A program made the translations under genes and the position numbers. This document shows, piece by piece, positions 13,697 through 22,298 of a stretch of DNA of 64,000 nt; within the stretch, counting starts at the first letter, position 1; the number at the start of each line of letters is the position of its first letter. The notes below the pieces were generated by a model, which saw only the letters and a program-made list of their open reading frames with translations, ran no database searches and had not been told where the DNA came from. Source of the stretch: an uncultured Candidatus Saccharibacteria bacterium (GTDB lineage Bacteria > Patescibacteriota > Doudnabacteria > UBA920); assembly GCA_964453265.1 (NCBI GenBank), contig CAYVNU010000003.1, positions 3,957-67,956 on the forward strand. The letters are read 5' to 3'.

Positions 13697-14251
13697 TTAC
13701 TTTCCAAGTAATTTTAACGCCTGCTTTATTTGCTCGCCCGTAGTTGCCACTGCATCTAACTTGTTAATTATGCTTCTCACTTCATTTTGCTTATACCCTA
13801 AAGCAATAAGTGCATCAAACACCTCACTGCTTCCACCTGTCACCCGTAACCCGTCACCCGTCACTTTTCCTTTTAGCTCCACTATTATTTTCTCCGCTGT
13901 CTTAGTCCCCACTCCCGAAATACGTGTAAAAATTCCGGCATCTTGGTTTGCAATCGCAGATTTTACCGCATCTACCCTTGCTGACGATAGTATAGCTAAA
14001 GCGACTTTCGGACCTACCCCCGAAACAGTAATAAGCATTTCAAAAAACTGCAAAGTGTTAAAGTCAGACAAACCAAAAAGACTCTGTCCGTCCTCGGAAA
14101 CTTTGTGATATATATAGAGCGAAAGACTATGGCCAATTCTGCTTTCTAAAACTTCCGGCGTTACAAAAACCTTATAACCTACGCCTTGATTTTCAAGGAT
14201 TATAAAGTTAGTAGCCTTCTCTAATATTTTTCCTTGCAAAAAAGCAATCAT
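13697..14251 (-). CDS. ruvA: Holliday junction branch migration protein RuvA
   Basis: 184 aa, MIAFLQGKI start, helix-hairpin-helix GVGPKVALAIL motifs; contains in-frame GDGLRVT repeat insert. Confidence 0.9.
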   Translation of the reverse strand: MIAFLQGKILEKATNFIILENQGVGYKVFVTPEVLESRIGHSLSLYIYHKVSEDGQSLFGLSDFNTLQFFEMLITVSGVGPKVALAILSSARVDAVKSAIANQDAGIFTRISGVGTKTAEKIIVELKGKVTGDGLRVTGGSSEVFDALIALGYKQNEVRSIINKLDAVATTGEQIKQALKLLGK

Positions 14252-14376
14252 AAGCTATGAAATTTTAATTAATACAAATCTATAAATGACTACAAAATAA
14301 TCCATTACAAATTCGTAGTTATTTGTAGCGCCCCCATTTAGTAGATTCGTAGTTATTCTACCACCTCCCAAAGCCG

Positions 14377-14405
14377 TTGACAAAAGGCTTAAATTAGCGT
14401 ATACT
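14377..14405 (+). promoter_or_regulatory. consensus sigma-70 promoter TTGACA-N17-TATACT driving the structured RNA locus
   Basis: ttgaca 14377-14382, exact 17-nt spacer, tatact 14400-14405; predicted TSS near 14413. Confidence 0.65.
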
Positions 14406-14413
14406 TTTGCCAA

Positions 14414-14931
14414 CCTGAGTTGGGGGGATTAGCACTGGTGGTCAGCCATGATCATCAGCTTACCCCTCAAGCTCAAGCCAGCTGGCCTTTAGAAGCAGGG
14501 TCAGTTGGCAACGGCAGTCCTACGAGCAATAAGCCTCAGACGTAGGACTGCCGGTAAAAGTTTTAAAAGCCGCAAGCACTGGCTTGCGGCAGGGCACGAC
14601 TAGAACGCAAAGTTCTAGCATCTGAATCGAATATTCAGAGATGAACACACCAAACCCACCATCGGGATTCCCGTCCCAAGTGTGTTCATCCGCCCTTTGA
14701 GGATTCGGCGCGCCTGACAGATCAGGAGCAGGTGTGCCGAGCTGCGGCCAGGTTCCCATTAATTTGGGGAGTTAAAACTCGAGCTCAGAGCTCACCAGCC
14801 GCAGCAAAAAATTAAGGAGGAAAAAATTTTTTGGCCCCTAAAAAGGGCCGATCGGGGGATGAGCATGCAATGGTGCATGCGCTTGCCCTGGGGGCAAGAG
14901 AAAGCGGGTTCAAATCCCCTATCCCCTACCA
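14414..14931 (+). ncRNA. GC-rich highly structured non-coding RNA of uncertain class (candidate tmRNA/ssrA; alternatively unknown sRNA co-transcribed with a tRNA-like gene)
   Basis: About 55-60% GC in a 35-40% GC genome; many perfect local hairpins (13-bp cggcagtcctacg/cgtaggactgccg, 11-bp gatgaacacac/gtgtgttcatc, 9-bp gccgcaagc/gcttgcggc); starts GGGGGAT right after the promoter and ends with T-arm GGTTCAAATCC, acceptor strand ATCCCCT, A73 and CCA; followed by intrinsic terminator; no conserved RNase P or SRP motifs seen. Confidence 0.45.
14854..14931 (+). tRNA. tRNA-like module (cloverleaf with UGG Pro-like anticodon but C at position 33 and one T-stem mismatch; encoded CCA)
   Basis: 7-bp acceptor stem gggggat/atcccct (G1-U72), D-stem gcat/atgc with GG in loop, anticodon stem cttgc/gcaag, loop cctgggg, canonical T-loop gTTCAAATc, discriminator A, CCA 14929-14931; non-canonical C33 keeps confidence low; may instead be the tRNA-like domain of a tmRNA. 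Confidence 0.4.
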
Positions 14932-14993
14932 GTTTTAGGAGTTCGCCTGAGCATTTTTTGCTCGCACTCCAAAAAATTTATCCTCCTCCTTGA

Positions 14994-15028
14994 GGGCGGC
15001 CAGCAACCAGCTGGTCGCCCTTTTTTTT
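14994..15028 (+). terminator. rho-independent terminator after the RNA locus
   Basis: gggcggccagc-aacc-agctggtcgccc stem followed by TTTTTTTT. Confidence 0.75.
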
Positions 15029-15100
15029 ATTCTCACCACTTTATGTGGCTTTTTTTAATTGTAGAAAAATGTTAAAATGAAAATTGGTCATTAATTAACC

Positions 15101-18532: not shown

Positions 18533-18644
18533 TGCAAGTTATAAAAAATAACAGTCCAGGGAGCCTGCGGGACTAAAAACTTGGGGTGATACTCTGGCGA
18601 GAGTTTCTAAATACGCGTGACAATCCTGAAGGAGGATTTAAAAA

Positions 18645-19358
18645 ATGCCTGCATATACGATCGCTGACTTCGCCCGGAAACACAAAGGCCTGCGTGTGAT
18701 CGCCCGCCGCCATGCGGTGTACAACAAACCCGTGCTTGGACTGGACGCCCTTACAATGGCTGCGCTCATCTACTCGCGCACCATTGACCCGCAACTTCTT
18801 GGCCTAAGTGCCGAGGGCATGGAACAGATGTACAACCAGGGCGAGCTGCTTGCGGAAATGGGACTTGTTCCTGACCGCATAGTCACAGGCATTGACCTGC
18901 GCAACTGGGAAGGCGGGATGCAAACCGTCGCTGCCATCAAGGCCAAAACCGGCAATGTAGTTCCCTGCCACCGCAGCCCGGCCGTAACCTATCCGTACTA
19001 CGATGCCATGAAGACCGTAGAGGTGTATGAAAAGTACGGTGACCAGGCCGTACACGCTTACCTGTCCGAACAGCCCGGAACGGAAGGACTGTGGACTGAG
19101 TCGGCCGCGGACTTTATGAACCGGATCGAAATGTCAGTTGCGTCAGTAGCGTGGCCGGGAATCACGCTATTTGATCTCAACTTCGAGCAAATGACATTCC
19201 TGCATTTCCACCTTGTCGAGCACCTGCGGCAAGTTGAGATTCCATTTGGCCCCGACGCCTGGTGTCCTAAAAACGGCGGAGGGATCGTCATCGCCAACGA
19301 CGACGCTGTGGGCGAGTTCCACCCGGATCTCACCATGGTTATCAAGATCGTAAGCTAG
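18645..19358 (+). CDS. hypothetical protein encoded on a GC-rich (about 58%) island; likely horizontally acquired
   Basis: 237 aa ORF with strong SD ggagga 8 nt upstream; codon usage/GC sharply different from flanks; many spurious overlapping ORFs in other frames typical of GC-rich DNA; followed by 9-bp-stem hairpin gggagagac/gtctctccc. Confidence 0.6.
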   Translation: MPAYTIADFARKHKGLRVIARRHAVYNKPVLGLDALTMAALIYSRTIDPQLLGLSAEGMEQMYNQGELLAEMGLVPDRIVTGIDLRNWEGGMQTVAAIKAKTGNVVPCHRSPAVTYPYYDAMKTVEVYEKYGDQAVHAYLSEQPGTEGLWTESAADFMNRIEMSVASVAWPGITLFDLNFEQMTFLHFHLVEHLRQVEIPFGPDAWCPKNGGGIVIANDDAVGEFHPDLTMVIKIVS

Positions 19359-19462
19359 CTGGCATCCGACGGCTACAAGGGAGAGACAAACCACGCACAG
19401 TGGCGTCCGTCTCTCCCTACCCTTTATTAGTCCTTAATAAATTAAGCATTAATAATAGGTAT

Positions 19463-19786
19463 ATGAAATTATTACTCAAAGGCTTAGGCGCAAGCCAAGG
19501 CACAGTAGAGGGTGAAGCTAAAATCTTTTTACCCGGGGAAGCTAATAAAGACTTTCCGGAAGGCGCGATTTTAGTTACCACCTTAACCGACCCGACCATG
19601 GTTCAGGCCATGGTTAAAGCCGTAGGTATTGTTACAGATATTGGCGGCATCACTTCTCACCCAGCAATTTTAAGTCGGGAAATGGGTATTCCTTGCGTAG
19701 TTAGCACTAAACAAGGTACTCAAATAATTAAAGACGGGATGAAAATTTTTATTGACGGTACAAAAGGAGAAGTTTATGCCGTATAA
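19463..19786 (+). CDS. stand-alone PEP-utilizing enzyme mobile (phosphohistidine swivel) domain protein
   Basis: GIVTDIGGITSHPAILSREMGIPCVVS matches GGxTSHAAIxARExGIPxVVG motif of PEP synthase/PPDK central domain; start set at MKLLLKG. Confidence 0.75.
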   Translation: MKLLLKGLGASQGTVEGEAKIFLPGEANKDFPEGAILVTTLTDPTMVQAMVKAVGIVTDIGGITSHPAILSREMGIPCVVSTKQGTQIIKDGMKIFIDGTKGEVYAV

Positions 19787-19829: not shown

Positions 19830-20954
19830 ATGATTCAATCTGCCAATTCAAAAGAAATTCCAGAGAATAAAAACTGGATTAGAGATTTTGCCCAAGCGTC
19901 TTTTAAACTATATTCGGGTAATACTATAGATGCATTCCAGCCTCTAGACTTTTTTCATTTTTACCCGCTCTGGTACGATTTATGGGTAAACAGATTTATG
20001 TCTGTAATGGATGTTTTACAATGCGATTATAAAAGCTATCAAGAATTAAAACACTTATTACCCGTACCTTCCAGTATGAGAGCAATTTTACAAAAGCTCA
20101 TCCCAACTTTTGCAGGCGTAGACCCCATGCATGCAAAAAACTTTGGTAGGATGGCAAATTTTTTCACGCGCATGCTTAAAGAAAGCTGTGCGGAAGACCC
20201 TTTTGGTTTTAGCCACAACCCTCTTCATACCAGAAATGAACTAAACGAAATAATTCAAAACACCCCCTGGCAACCAGCAACTCCCGAAATTGCCAAACAA
20301 CTAGGACAACTAATTACCGCAGCCGGCTCCTTAGTGCACGGCTTATATAATGACGTAGTTACAGATTTCGGTTGGGATGCCTATGGACCTTACAACATAG
20401 TTTTGCCTGAAAAAAAATATCAAATAATTATTCGTCACTTTCCAGATCTTGCGCCAAAAGAAATATGGGAAAGTAAATTTTTAACACCGGTTCAAGATAT
20501 AAAAATCTATCAATTTTACGAAAACGTAGAATGGGAATTAGCTTTTTTAGGCTGCCATACAGTGCTTAAATCGGGTAGCCCAGTACTTGGATTAAAATAC
20601 TTTGCCATATCTATAAACGAAAAATTTATTACCCCAAATATTATACAGCCCATAATACAAGAATTTAGCGAAAAAGCTGTTAGCATATATAAAGAAATTA
20701 GAAAAAAAGATTTTGAAGAATTAAAACAATTGGTAATGATTCAAGAATGCTACCAACTACACAAAATATTTTCTGCCGCCTACATGAACTGGCAGCCTAC
20801 GGAAGAAATGTTGGAAAAAATAAAAAACCAACCTCTTACTTCTAACTTATTACCTTTTGGCAGATTAATGACCAGCCTTGATGAATACAAAGAACTTTTT
20901 CATATAAATAAATTCGAAAAAGAAGTTTTAGACTTTCCCACTGTTAAGGCATAA
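19830..20954 (+). CDS. hypothetical protein (374 aa), possibly partner of the mobile-domain protein
   Basis: long ORF with lineage-typical codon usage, no recognisable motif. Confidence 0.5.
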   Translation: MIQSANSKEIPENKNWIRDFAQASFKLYSGNTIDAFQPLDFFHFYPLWYDLWVNRFMSVMDVLQCDYKSYQELKHLLPVPSSMRAILQKLIPTFAGVDPMHAKNFGRMANFFTRMLKESCAEDPFGFSHNPLHTRNELNEIIQNTPWQPATPEIAKQLGQLITAAGSLVHGLYNDVVTDFGWDAYGPYNIVLPEKKYQIIIRHFPDLAPKEIWESKFLTPVQDIKIYQFYENVEWELAFLGCHTVLKSGSPVLGLKYFAISINEKFITPNIIQPIIQEFSEKAVSIYKEIRKKDFEELKQLVMIQECYQLHKIFSAAYMNWQPTEEMLEKIKNQPLTSNLLPFGRLMTSLDEYKELFHINKFEKEVLDFPTVKA

Positions 20955-20965
20955 AGCCTTAATCC

Positions 20966-21017
20966 CGTATGTCACCCGCACAAGGATTCCCCTTGTTGTT
21001 TACAAGGGGAATCCTTG
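20966..21017 (+). terminator. terminator-like perfect 17-bp hairpin
   Basis: cacaaggattccccttg-ttgttta-caaggggaatccttgtg followed by ttta; second 7-bp hairpin tgtcaag/cttgaca just downstream. Confidence 0.55.
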
Positions 21018-21184
21018 TGTTTACCTCATGTCAAGACATAGAGCCTTGACAGAAAGGGTAAAAAATAATAAAATATTTTGAAAATCCCGGGCTTTTTTCT
21101 GGGATTTTTAATTTTAAAAATAGCAGGGGGACTGTATTCATGTCTGCTAAATAGCTAAAAATAGCTTTTGGTTATTTTGCGGAC

Positions 21185-21865
21185 ATGAAAAATCATATTA
21201 TTCTTTTGGCCACGCTATGCGTGGCCACCCTGTGTCCAAGGGGGGCGCTTGGACAATGGGAGGCCGAGGCGCGGCTGGCGCCTCACACTCCCAAAGAATT
21301 TTCGGAAGGACATGGCGAGTCCTTCCGGAACGTGGGGGAGGCATGGTTCCGTCTCCCCTCCCTGCGGGGTTTCCGCGGGGAAACAGGAGCCTTCCGGACC
21401 GGCGACTCGTTTGTCGCCGTGTTCGGAGTTGAAAAGGAGTTGGCACACGACCAACTCCTGCCAGGCATTTTTGCCTGGGTTGATTCCGGCGGCATCCGGC
21501 CTGCCGCTGGGATCTCGTGGGCTCGGCATAGCCGAGTAGCTTTAGAGGGGCACGCCATTATGGCGTCCCCGAAAAAACTGCTCGGCCGCAGTGACGCAAG
21601 CCTAAGCCTCACAAGAGGCTTTGCGCTTGGTGTTACTGCCGAGCTAGACCCTGCCCCACACGGCAGGGCGTGGGGTTTGGGGCCTCACGTTAAAAAACAA
21701 ATCAAAGGAGCCGAGCTGGTGCTCGGCCACCTTTGGAAAATTGAAGGGGAAGGAGCCGAACGCCACGGCGAACCTTCCACTCACCCCATGAACCGCGAAT
21801 GGTTCGTGGGTATTAAATTCGCTCTCGGCCACCCCAAGGCCGAGGGCAAAAAATCTCACCACTAG
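21185..21865 (+). CDS. secreted hypothetical protein on second GC-rich (about 62%) island; possible outer-membrane beta-barrel/lipid A deacylase-like
   Basis: N-terminal signal peptide MKNHIILLATLCVATLCPRGALGQ, glycine/aromatic-rich, C-terminal EWFVGIKFALGHP; all six frames open across 21198-21862 as expected for GC-rich coding DNA. Confidence 0.5.
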   Translation: MKNHIILLATLCVATLCPRGALGQWEAEARLAPHTPKEFSEGHGESFRNVGEAWFRLPSLRGFRGETGAFRTGDSFVAVFGVEKELAHDQLLPGIFAWVDSGGIRPAAGISWARHSRVALEGHAIMASPKKLLGRSDASLSLTRGFALGVTAELDPAPHGRAWGLGPHVKKQIKGAELVLGHLWKIEGEGAERHGEPSTHPMNREWFVGIKFALGHPKAEGKKSHH

Positions 21866-21876
21866 CTGATGAGTAG

Positions 21877-21912
21877 GGGCCAGGACATAGCGTTCCTGTC
21901 CCCTTGTTTTTT
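21877..21912 (+). terminator. rho-independent terminator
   Basis: cagga-catagcg-ttcctg hairpin then ccccttgTTTTTTTTc. Confidence 0.6.
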
Positions 21913-22028
21913 TTCTGCAATTTTGGTAAAATACGAAAAGTCTGAGTAATTAAATTTTTCATCCGTGTCGGATAAATTTTATTATCAGATAAGCATAATA
22001 CATTATTCTTAATACATAATACTTTTCT

Positions 22029-22298
22029 ATGCCAAATACTAAATCCGCAATGAAAGCCATGCGCCAGTCTATTACCAGACGCGCACGAAACATTGCCCAA
22101 AAAGATACTTTTAAAACCGCAGTTAAAGAAGTAAAAAAACTTATTACTGCCGGCAAAAAATCTGAAGCCATGGAAGCCATGAAAAAGGCTATGTCCACTT
22201 TAGACAAAGCCGTTAAAAAAGGAGTAATTAAGAAAAATACTTCTTCTCGAAAAAAATCCAGAATGGCAAAAGCTATAGCAAAATTAAAAACCGCTTAA
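22029..22298 (+). CDS. rpsT: 30S ribosomal protein S20
   Basis: MPNTKSAMKAMRQSITRRARN N-terminus and lysine/alanine-rich 89 aa typical of bS20; terminator hairpin aaaaccgc-ttaa-ggcggttttt overlaps stop. Confidence 0.9.
   Translation: MPNTKSAMKAMRQSITRRARNIAQKDTFKTAVKEVKKLITAGKKSEAMEAMKKAMSTLDKAVKKGVIKKNTSSRKKSRMAKAIAKLKTA

Follow-up and report, generated by a model that had tools for sequence, protein, structure and literature searches.

The window analyzed here is a 64,000-nt stretch of a contig (CAYVNU010000003.1) from an uncultured Candidatus Saccharibacteria bacterium, and the element in question is a short unit at positions 21046-21914 of this window, in which a putative promoter, a leader with a very short open reading frame (ORF) upstream (uORF), the main ORF of 226 codons and an intrinsic terminator can be recognized; promoter, ORF and terminator all lie on the + strand (Table 1). 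The best reading is that this feature is real and unusual, namely the hairpin-armoured mRNA of a protein gene, which is entered via the uORF and a start hairpin. The comparisons described below show a dual selection, on the encoded protein and on RNA pairing, and a covarying start hairpin that occludes the main start codon and carries a uORF equipped with a Shine-Dalgarno (SD) sequence in its 5′ arm.

The ORF has a GC content of 0.59, against a window mean of 0.38 (sd 0.054), and 300-nt windows starting at 21201-21351 (span to 21550) reach 0.61-0.63, which is the maximum of the whole window. A first-pass annotation, made from the sequence, had already pointed to a GC-rich island as the richest segment, and this island is real; its figure of 62% GC, however, applies to the 300-nt peak and not to the whole interval, and its statement that all six frames are open proved wrong, since frame 0 of the + strand alone is open and each of the other five has 4-7 stops. 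The 226-aa ORF is present as it had been described, and so are the hairpins on both flanks (the perfect 18-bp stem on the upstream side, and a terminator stem at 21875-21904 with a T-run to 21914). The possibility of an assembly error was tested with an independent metagenome assembly (L007, 1134 nt), which matches positions 20981-22114 of the window, including both junctions with the AT-rich flanks. As the same locus was assembled independently, a chimera or an assembly artefact is ruled out. The sole difference between L007 and the window is the 5-nt loop of the upstream hairpin, which is inverted in L007, and could reflect either a loop inversion or an ambiguity of the assembler at the palindrome. 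This upstream hairpin probably belongs to the upstream gene, and not to the transcription unit described here.

The family to which the encoded protein belongs is very small. Among 5.8 billion protein clusters, a search recovered the window protein and three relatives at 62-66% identity (loci L001, L003 and L004), and an exhaustive HMMER profile search added a distant member of 187 aa and ~40% identity (P0005, locus L006), which keeps the motifs LGRAD, GVTAEL, WGxGPHxKK and GWFVGxK. A further match of 985 aa (P0006), a repeat protein that aligned over one beta-strand stretch, was treated as spurious. In all, the family has five members, with products of 187-231 aa, and no others were found in the protein, genome, metagenome, viral, phage and plasmid searches (word-indexed protein, HMMER profile, genome, metagenome and viral DNA-pattern scans, and tblastn against phages and plasmids). 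The gene, here X, shares with the close relatives the order uvrB, variable genes, X, rpsT, RhuM/Fic, polA, and the syntenic position was confirmed in L001 and L003 (uvrB ... rpsT ... polA); one close relative comes from a metagenome-assembled genome labelled Candidatus Saccharibacteria, which is the closest named genome. From its surroundings, the gene appears to have been inherited vertically. Two further observations concern individual members. The public gene call in L004 starts too far downstream; with the in-frame ATG at L004:103 (103-147) the N-terminus becomes complete and signal-peptide-like (MAITRTQQLASAALMAALATL...), and the conserved start hairpin is recovered. On the L006 contig the gene adjoins a divergent Y1 (IS200/IS605-type) transposase gene (L006 30-680, - strand), and a 12-bp inverted repeat (AGGGTGACCCTC ... 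GAGGGTCACCCT) is located after the terminator of the L006 gene (1640-1720); elements of the IS200/IS605 type may occasionally move the family.

As judged from substitution patterns, the ORF is a true gene that is under purifying selection as a protein. The chance that one frame remains open over 226 codons at this composition is ~4e-4. Differences at codon positions 1/2/3 amounted to 17/13/55 between L001 and L004 and to 46/44/86 between the window and L001, and in 6 of 6 pairwise comparisons the third position differed 2-4 fold more than the first and second. The Nei-Gojobori ratio of nonsynonymous to synonymous change (dN/dS) was ~0.29 over the ORF (pN 0.23, pS 0.54). In the DNA alignment of the window with the three close relatives (alignment A1), every indel within the ORF has a length divisible by 3, and the stop codons line up. 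The N-termini of the five homologues all begin with basic residues, continue with 10-12 residues that form a hydrophobic core (Kyte-Doolittle 2.2-3.0) and have small residues ahead of a conserved QWE/QNL, the presumed N-terminus of the mature protein, and this signal-peptide-like character is kept even though the N-terminal sequence itself is variable. Since these N-termini behave as a Sec signal peptide does, the product is presumably exported. The first-pass description of a protein-coding gene with a signal-peptide-like N-terminus is thus supported by the period-3 substitutions, by the five homologues and by the single open frame.

The RNA of the same region is folded to an unusual degree, a property that the first-pass annotation did not mention. 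The + strand of the interval 21150-21920 has a minimum free energy (MFE) of -416 kcal/mol, against -298 +/- 6 kcal/mol in dinucleotide shuffles (z = -18.65), and its fold strings together ~25 nearly perfect hairpins, most of them local, that tile the whole ORF; the - strand of the interval gave z = -13.96, the + strand being ~29 kcal/mol more stable. When 300-nt segments were regressed on GC, the locus was the strongest structure outlier in the window, and only the interval 14300-15100 came near it; it was also the top outlier in L001, L003 and L006. The RNAalifold consensus on alignment A1 contains 253 pairs, with 93.2% of the cells paired, against 40-53% when the partners were slid by 1-3 columns, and changes on both sides of a pair were observed at 44 pairs; the slid controls had 4-9 such pairs, and column shuffles 17.9 +/- 3.3. 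Codons were also permuted within each gene, so that protein, codon usage and GC at the third codon position (GC3) were left unchanged. This synonymous-codon shuffle gave z = -12.8 for the window gene, -10.0, -8.7 and -13.2 for the close relatives and -5.5 for L006, at a cost of ~70-100 kcal/mol in the four close genes and of ~43 kcal/mol in L006, whereas four control genes from the window gave z of +0.1 to -3.9. In agreement with a constraint on synonymous sites, the pS of 0.54 compares with 0.75-0.84 (saturated) in rpsT, RhuM/Fic, uvrB and trmB, at similar amino-acid identity. Furthermore, 8 of the 29 covarying pairs of the coding sequence (CDS) are confined to codon positions 1 and 2, which indicates that amino-acid replacements also track the pairing partner. 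Taken together, the comparisons show that the ~25 hairpins of the CDS are conserved through compensatory change and through the choice of synonymous codons.

Locking of the stems to codon phase, with wobble positions paired to wobble positions, was considered and rejected, stems being found in all three phases. A known RNA family was also ruled out: there was no Rfam 15 match at the gathering threshold in the window, L001, L003 or L006, a permissive Rfam scan of 20900-22050 gave chance-level matches alone (best 30.9 bits, threshold 50), and ARAGORN found nothing at the locus. The main single-stranded linkers between the hairpins are A-runs at 21570-21580, 21691-21698 and 21848-21854, which correspond to conserved Lys-Lys codons; in L001 two of the A-runs form A_AAA_AAA heptamers just 5′ of stable hairpins, which is formally the layout of a -1 frameshift site.

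The distant member carries the same property on a different background. The L006 contig has ~30% GC, whereas the gene has 0.53-0.55, and its fold gave z = -12.4. The hairpin under KGxE..G.LW is compensated in L006 (GCCGAGC/GCTCGGC versus ACCGAAA/TTTCGGT), and other hairpins with compensatory changes lie under WGxGPH and GWFVG. What the family appears to retain, judging from these alignments, is heavy pairing as such.

The leader is also conserved. Equivalents of the putative promoter occupy the corresponding place in L006 (858-886, matching 11 of 12 consensus positions), L003 (7846-7874, 10 of 12) and L001 (6134-6162, 9 of 12). A hairpin followed by a U-tract, 5-14 nt past the -10 element, is present in L001, L003, L004 and L006 as well as in the window; although it resembles a terminator, in L006 the upstream gene is divergent, so that there the hairpin cannot be the terminator of that gene and belongs to this unit. 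It may act as a stabiliser or as an attenuator. Motifs of the GGAGG type stand 8-12 nt 5′ of the uORF start in 5 of 5 loci, and no SD was found in front of the main AUG. The counterparts of the window uORF, each of which shares the frame of the main ORF, are MAAINL* (L001), MVAINL* (L004) and MFVSAD* (L006). The start hairpin, in which the main AUG is paired, forms in the individual folds of 5 of 5 sequences, and on alignment A6 it comprises 24 pairs (86.7% paired), with two-sided changes at 12 pairs against 1-3 in the slid controls; the ~20 nt that follow the main AUG are AU-rich and unpaired. The complete arrangement of a leader-attenuation device, i.e., an SD, a short ORF over the 5′ arm and a 3′ arm that hides the main start, was observed in 4 of 5 loci. 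At the other end of the unit, the outer stem and tail of the L006 terminator (AGGGGCAGGC...GCCTGCCCCT TGTTTTTTTT) are nearly identical to those of the window.

Table 1. Features of the hairpin-rich transcription unit and of its upstream flank, in window coordinates
Feature	Position	Strand	Remarks
Perfect 18-bp hairpin	20979-21019		Strand unassigned; inverted repeat I2, 100% complementary; 5′ of the predicted promoter
Putative sigma-70-like promoter, TTGACA, 17 nt, TAAAAT	21046-21074	+	11/12 consensus positions; predicted function
Hairpin at the presumed 5′ end, ~14 bp, AAAAUCCCGGG / CUGGGAUUUU, then U-rich tract	21078-21117	+	Leader MFE fold, inverted repeat I8; terminator-like
Shine-Dalgarno-like AGGGGGA	21125-21131	+	8 nt 5′ of the uORF AUG; read from the sequence
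Start hairpin	21137-21189	+	Inverted repeat I1; main AUG (21185-21187) pairs with 21139-21141
uORF, 4 codons, MSAK, stop TAG	21140-21154	+	In frame with the main ORF; predicted translation
Main ORF, 226 aa	21185-21865	+	Signal-peptide-like N-terminus, then Gly/Ala/His/Trp-rich, probably all-beta mature protein; ~25 conserved hairpins tile the CDS
Intrinsic terminator, AGGGG.CAGGA ... UCCUG.CCCCU, then UUGUUUUUUUU	21875-21914	+	Helix 30 on alignment A1

Wherever the uORF stop has been retained, i.e., in four loci, uORF and main ORF share one frame (21140-21187 in the window, L001 6240-6284, L004 61-105 and L006 952-1005), with distances from AUG to AUG of 45, 42, 42 and 51 nt. The chance of a shared frame is ~1/27, and it could be a coincidence or a hint of an occasional read-through of the stop.

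We consider it rather probable that the interval 21046-21914 is one unit that encodes an exported protein, the mRNA of which has been selected for pairing nearly from end to end, is gated by the uORF and is protected by its structure. According to this interpretation, the 30S subunit would be unable to load at the folded main start site, for it cannot open a stable helix, and ribosomes would start instead at the accessible SD and uORF. Translation of the 4-6 codons of the uORF would then melt the 5′ arm of the start hairpin and free the main AUG, 21-30 nt downstream, which could be used either by the terminating ribosome upon reinitiation or by a second, fresh ribosome. Elongating ribosomes, which have helicase activity, would unwind the hairpins of the CDS. 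When ribosomes are absent, few single-stranded AU-rich entry sites for RNases would be left by the hairpin at the 5′ end, the GC-rich body with its pairing and the strong terminator, so that the message would be shielded from 5′-end-dependent and single-strand-specific RNases, and perhaps from Rho. The result would be a long-lived message, the output of which is set at the uORF gate.

Several points weigh against this interpretation. We infer the stability of the mRNA and the role of the uORF as an on-ramp from the anatomy of the unit. Dense and stable hairpins should slow elongation, which is a poor fit to a simple rationale of high output. The uORF stop has been lost in L003, and therefore the uORF may not be essential; this loss also leaves room for a different start device, in which the hairpin could merely place the SD beside the main AUG, as happens in certain genes of phage T4. 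No more than ~20 pairs occupy identical columns of the codon alignment when the window group is compared with L006, so that part of the structure has been replaced in L006 and not conserved. The family consists of five sequences of which three are close, and hence the covariation counts are not independent events. Finally, the preference for G-U over A-C outcomes in the stems, which is given below, is modest.

The product is small, presumably exported and probably beta-rich, and belongs to an unnamed and very rare family. No match was found in Pfam or NCBIfam, and a PDB profile search was empty, even at E values up to 1-10. Structure prediction, which had been proposed as a check of the first-pass annotation, gave all-beta meanders of low confidence: the AlphaFold (AF2) models had predicted local distance difference test (pLDDT) scores of 38 and 35, from a 5-sequence alignment. 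With this low-confidence query, Foldseek against the PDB gave a best E value of 0.06, and transmembrane barrels dominated the list at non-significant scores, a hint at best. The beta-amphipathic periodicity was significant in P0005 (z = 3.0) but not in window-type proteins (z = 0.4 and 0.15). The product may fairly be described as a secreted beta-rich protein. The proposal of an outer-membrane beta-barrel or of a lipid-modifying (PagL-like) enzyme was not established, because there is no profile match, the models are of low confidence and the Foldseek E values are at least 0.06; membership of an OmpA/OmpW/OmpX/PagL-like barrel family would call for a match to a profile or to a solved structure, and neither was found. 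Moreover, Saccharibacteria are generally considered to lack an outer membrane, and an outer-membrane barrel would for this reason be odd here.

Of the other explanations, the most probable is that of a bifunctional RNA, i.e., that the folded transcript of ~800 nt works as an RNA (as a scaffold, as a sponge, or in an exported or packaged form) and that the ORF was added to it as a second function or arose de novo inside an older structured RNA. In amount and conservation, the structure is comparable to that of large structured RNAs and surpasses any control mRNA, the protein has diverged more between the window and L006 than have the 5′ leader and the terminator, amino-acid changes covary with the pairing partners, and the family is tiny, restricted to a lineage, odd in composition and devoid of detectable fold relatives. 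However, no locus has an Rfam match, the fold consists mostly of simple local hairpins with no obvious multi-helix junctions, conserved loops or pseudoknots, the loops share no common motif on inspection, and many hairpins have been replaced in L006, a replacement that suits a requirement for any structure better than one for a specific architecture. We regard a bifunctional RNA as a rather unlikely alternative to a structure-protected message. A related proposal, which we put forward only tentatively, is that the entire 680-nt coding region doubles as a large, selected RNA structure, so that messages of this kind, 'armoured' or bifunctional, would form a class that is new, here in an episymbiotic bacterium of the Candidate Phyla Radiation (CPR). 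The RNA could be a stored, masked mRNA that is released on cue, e.g., upon host contact, or it could have a function of its own, in which case fold and exported protein would have evolved together, one codon at a time, and the protein gene may have been born inside an older structured RNA.

Selection could instead operate on the DNA, if the inverted repeats are kept complementary by a mutational process (template switching within a strand at quasi-palindromes) or act as hairpins or cruciforms of the DNA, with the RNA fold as a by-product. Such an origin would fit the fact that both strands lie far below their shuffles (z -18.7 and -14.0) and that many stems are perfect Watson-Crick duplexes. 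Against it, one-sided changes at Watson-Crick pairs led to G-U 214 times and to A-C 161 times, G-U pairs are conserved at several positions in all four sequences (e.g., A1 columns 460-585, 546-561, 549-558 and 642-676), and the + strand is the more stable one. In addition, the hairpin field is bounded exactly by the + strand promoter and terminator, and it includes a start-codon hairpin that has a translational logic. The G-U bias, the conserved G-U pairs and the energy of the + strand favour selection at the RNA level over selection at the DNA level, although not overwhelmingly, and with the bounded field and the start-codon hairpin they leave the DNA-level explanation improbable.

The first-pass annotation had attributed the island to acquisition from a high-GC donor, in which case this would be an ordinary gene, recently imported, its GC content would be the composition of the donor and its hairpins would be incidental. 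The sharp GC contrast with the flanks, the position of the L006 gene beside a Y1 transposase and the fact that Saccharibacteria live on high-GC Actinobacteria are in line with such an import. However, GC at codon positions 1/2/3 is 0.66/0.50/0.62 in the gene, with similar values in its relatives, and ~0.45-0.52/0.30-0.33/0.31-0.37 in native genes. All codon positions are therefore raised and GC3 stays below GC1, which is not the pattern of a donor's mutational bias, and the order GC3 > GC1 > GC2 that would mark a foreign island was not observed. A foreign island should also be absent from relatives or non-syntenic in them, and in L001 and L003 the gene occupies the same position. The first-pass annotation had named orthologues of native GC as grounds for rejecting its claim; the close orthologues turned out to be GC islands as well (0.61-0.64, against a background of 0.43-0.45), and the divergence of the protein equals that of the products of neighbouring genes. 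No homologue was detected in any high-GC organism among the 5.8 billion protein clusters, and the GC excess is also present in the 30%-GC genome of L006. Synonymous-shuffle z values of -9 to -13 are beyond the reach of composition alone, and the 20-point excess of GC is explained by the selected pairing, i.e., by CDS hairpins that are conserved through compensatory change and synonymous-codon choice. Given the syntenic orthologues, the lack of a high-GC relative and the excess in a 30%-GC genome, the donor hypothesis was abandoned as very unlikely. A purely noncoding structured RNA, with a 226-codon ORF that arose by chance, is hardly credible, for although GC-rich sequence is poor in stop codons and the product has no Pfam match, structure match or confident fold, such an RNA should have no frame under protein selection, and here the ORF frame shows period-3 changes and a dN/dS of 0.29 while the other five frames are closed, the indels are in frame, the stop is conserved, and the ORF is present in five loci and persists down to 40% identity, its replacements being conservative and its signal-peptide character retained.

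A second GC-rich island lies upstream in the window (island 1; ORF 18645-19358, + strand, 237 aa). It has a GC content of 0.56, with GC1/2/3 of 0.63/0.39/0.67, and no excess of RNA structure was found in it (z = +0.33 for 18560-19400; synonymous-shuffle z = -0.12). Owing to this GC3-led composition without excess structure, island 1 is not the same kind of feature as the island described above: it is a GC-rich coding sequence of the ordinary sort and, of the two, the better candidate for a foreign origin. Its ORF has no Pfam match, and it is followed by an ORF for a stand-alone PEP-utilising mobile domain at 19400-19786.

Parts of this arrangement have counterparts in known systems. In the ermC, cat-86 and cmlA leaders an SD precedes a very short ORF that runs over a hairpin's left arm, and the opposite (right) arm hides the initiation region downstream. 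The layout of SD, short ORF and occluding hairpin is the same here, but it is the AUG itself that is occluded, an SD is missing from the main gene, no arrest motif is common to the leader peptides (MSAK, M[AV]AINL and MFVSAD), and there is no antibiotic-resistance context, so that constitutive coupling is more likely than ligand-induced stalling. In single-stranded RNA phages (MS2/Qbeta), cistrons are embedded in conserved hairpins, and masked starts are opened by translation of an upstream cistron. Here, too, the CDS lies in hairpins throughout and its start is masked by RNA structure, but this is a gene of chromosomal DNA in conserved synteny, with no replicase or coat genes, and no match was found in phage collections.

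The mRNAs of type I toxins of the hok/sok kind, in which hok depends on the mok frame, are similar in their compact, inert and long-lived fold and in the need of the main ORF for an upstream or overlapping frame, which holds the accessible ribosome-binding site (PMC9841398, PMC11228461). A toxin of this type is a hydrophobic membrane peptide of less than ~60 aa, whereas the present products have ~200 aa (187-231 aa) and a putative signal peptide; furthermore, the structure spans a CDS of 680 nt, and neither a long-range helix that closes the 5′ and 3′ ends nor a processing step is evident. As to a cis-encoded antisense RNA antitoxin, a consensus scan, which cannot exclude an antisense promoter, found no promoter-like site on the - strand opposite the leader. 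Searches of GC-rich intergenic regions have revealed large noncoding RNAs in AT-rich genomes (PMC6429828, PMC8632094, PMC11109978). The locus resembles OLE, ROOL and GOLLD in that it is a GC-rich island of ~0.7-0.8 kb that folds with extreme energy, shows covariation and has a promoter and a terminator of its own, and it differs from them in being coding by sequence evidence, in having no Rfam model and in consisting mostly of simple local hairpins. With dual-function small RNAs (SgrS/SgrT, RNAIII/hld, AzuCR), the proteins of which usually have less than 50 aa (PMC12612679, PMC12310071), it shares a transcript that is constrained both as an RNA and as a coding sequence; in those RNAs, however, the pairing and coding parts are largely separate, whereas here a 226-codon ORF and the structure overlap fully. 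In a limited literature search we found no bacterial gene of this size described with its whole CDS under covariation-supported structural selection, and no described equivalent in Saccharibacteria or other CPR bacteria.

The interval 14300-15100 (+ strand), the only one that approached the locus as a structure outlier, has a GC content of ~0.52 and z = -13.1, contains no long ORF and gave no Rfam family at the gathering threshold. It lies between a ruvA-like gene (13697-14251, - strand) and uvrB (15374, + strand), and includes a tRNA-like element (14855-14927) that ends in ACCA and scores 22.7 bits with the Rfam tRNA model (threshold 29 bits), ARAGORN being negative. In L001 and L003 the same spacer contains a promoter as well as a tRNA-like piece (ARAGORN 'tRNA-???', L001 2221-2290), but only part of it aligns with the window. 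A tmRNA of divergent or permuted form, or a large noncoding RNA of another kind, may be encoded in this interval.

RNA structure in bacterial coding regions is usually weak and local. Here, one complete gene combines clear selection at the level of the protein with selection at the level of structure that is as strong as in dedicated structured RNAs. For annotation, the locus is a warning that a GC-rich island in an AT-rich genome is neither necessarily foreign DNA nor necessarily a noncoding RNA. The device formed by the uORF and the start hairpin is compact and conserved, and could be reused as a translational gate. The gene thus provides a natural test case of how far two codes can be overlaid, of how ribosomes enter and pass through such a message, and of what benefit an extreme mRNA structure may bring to a cell with a minimal genome.

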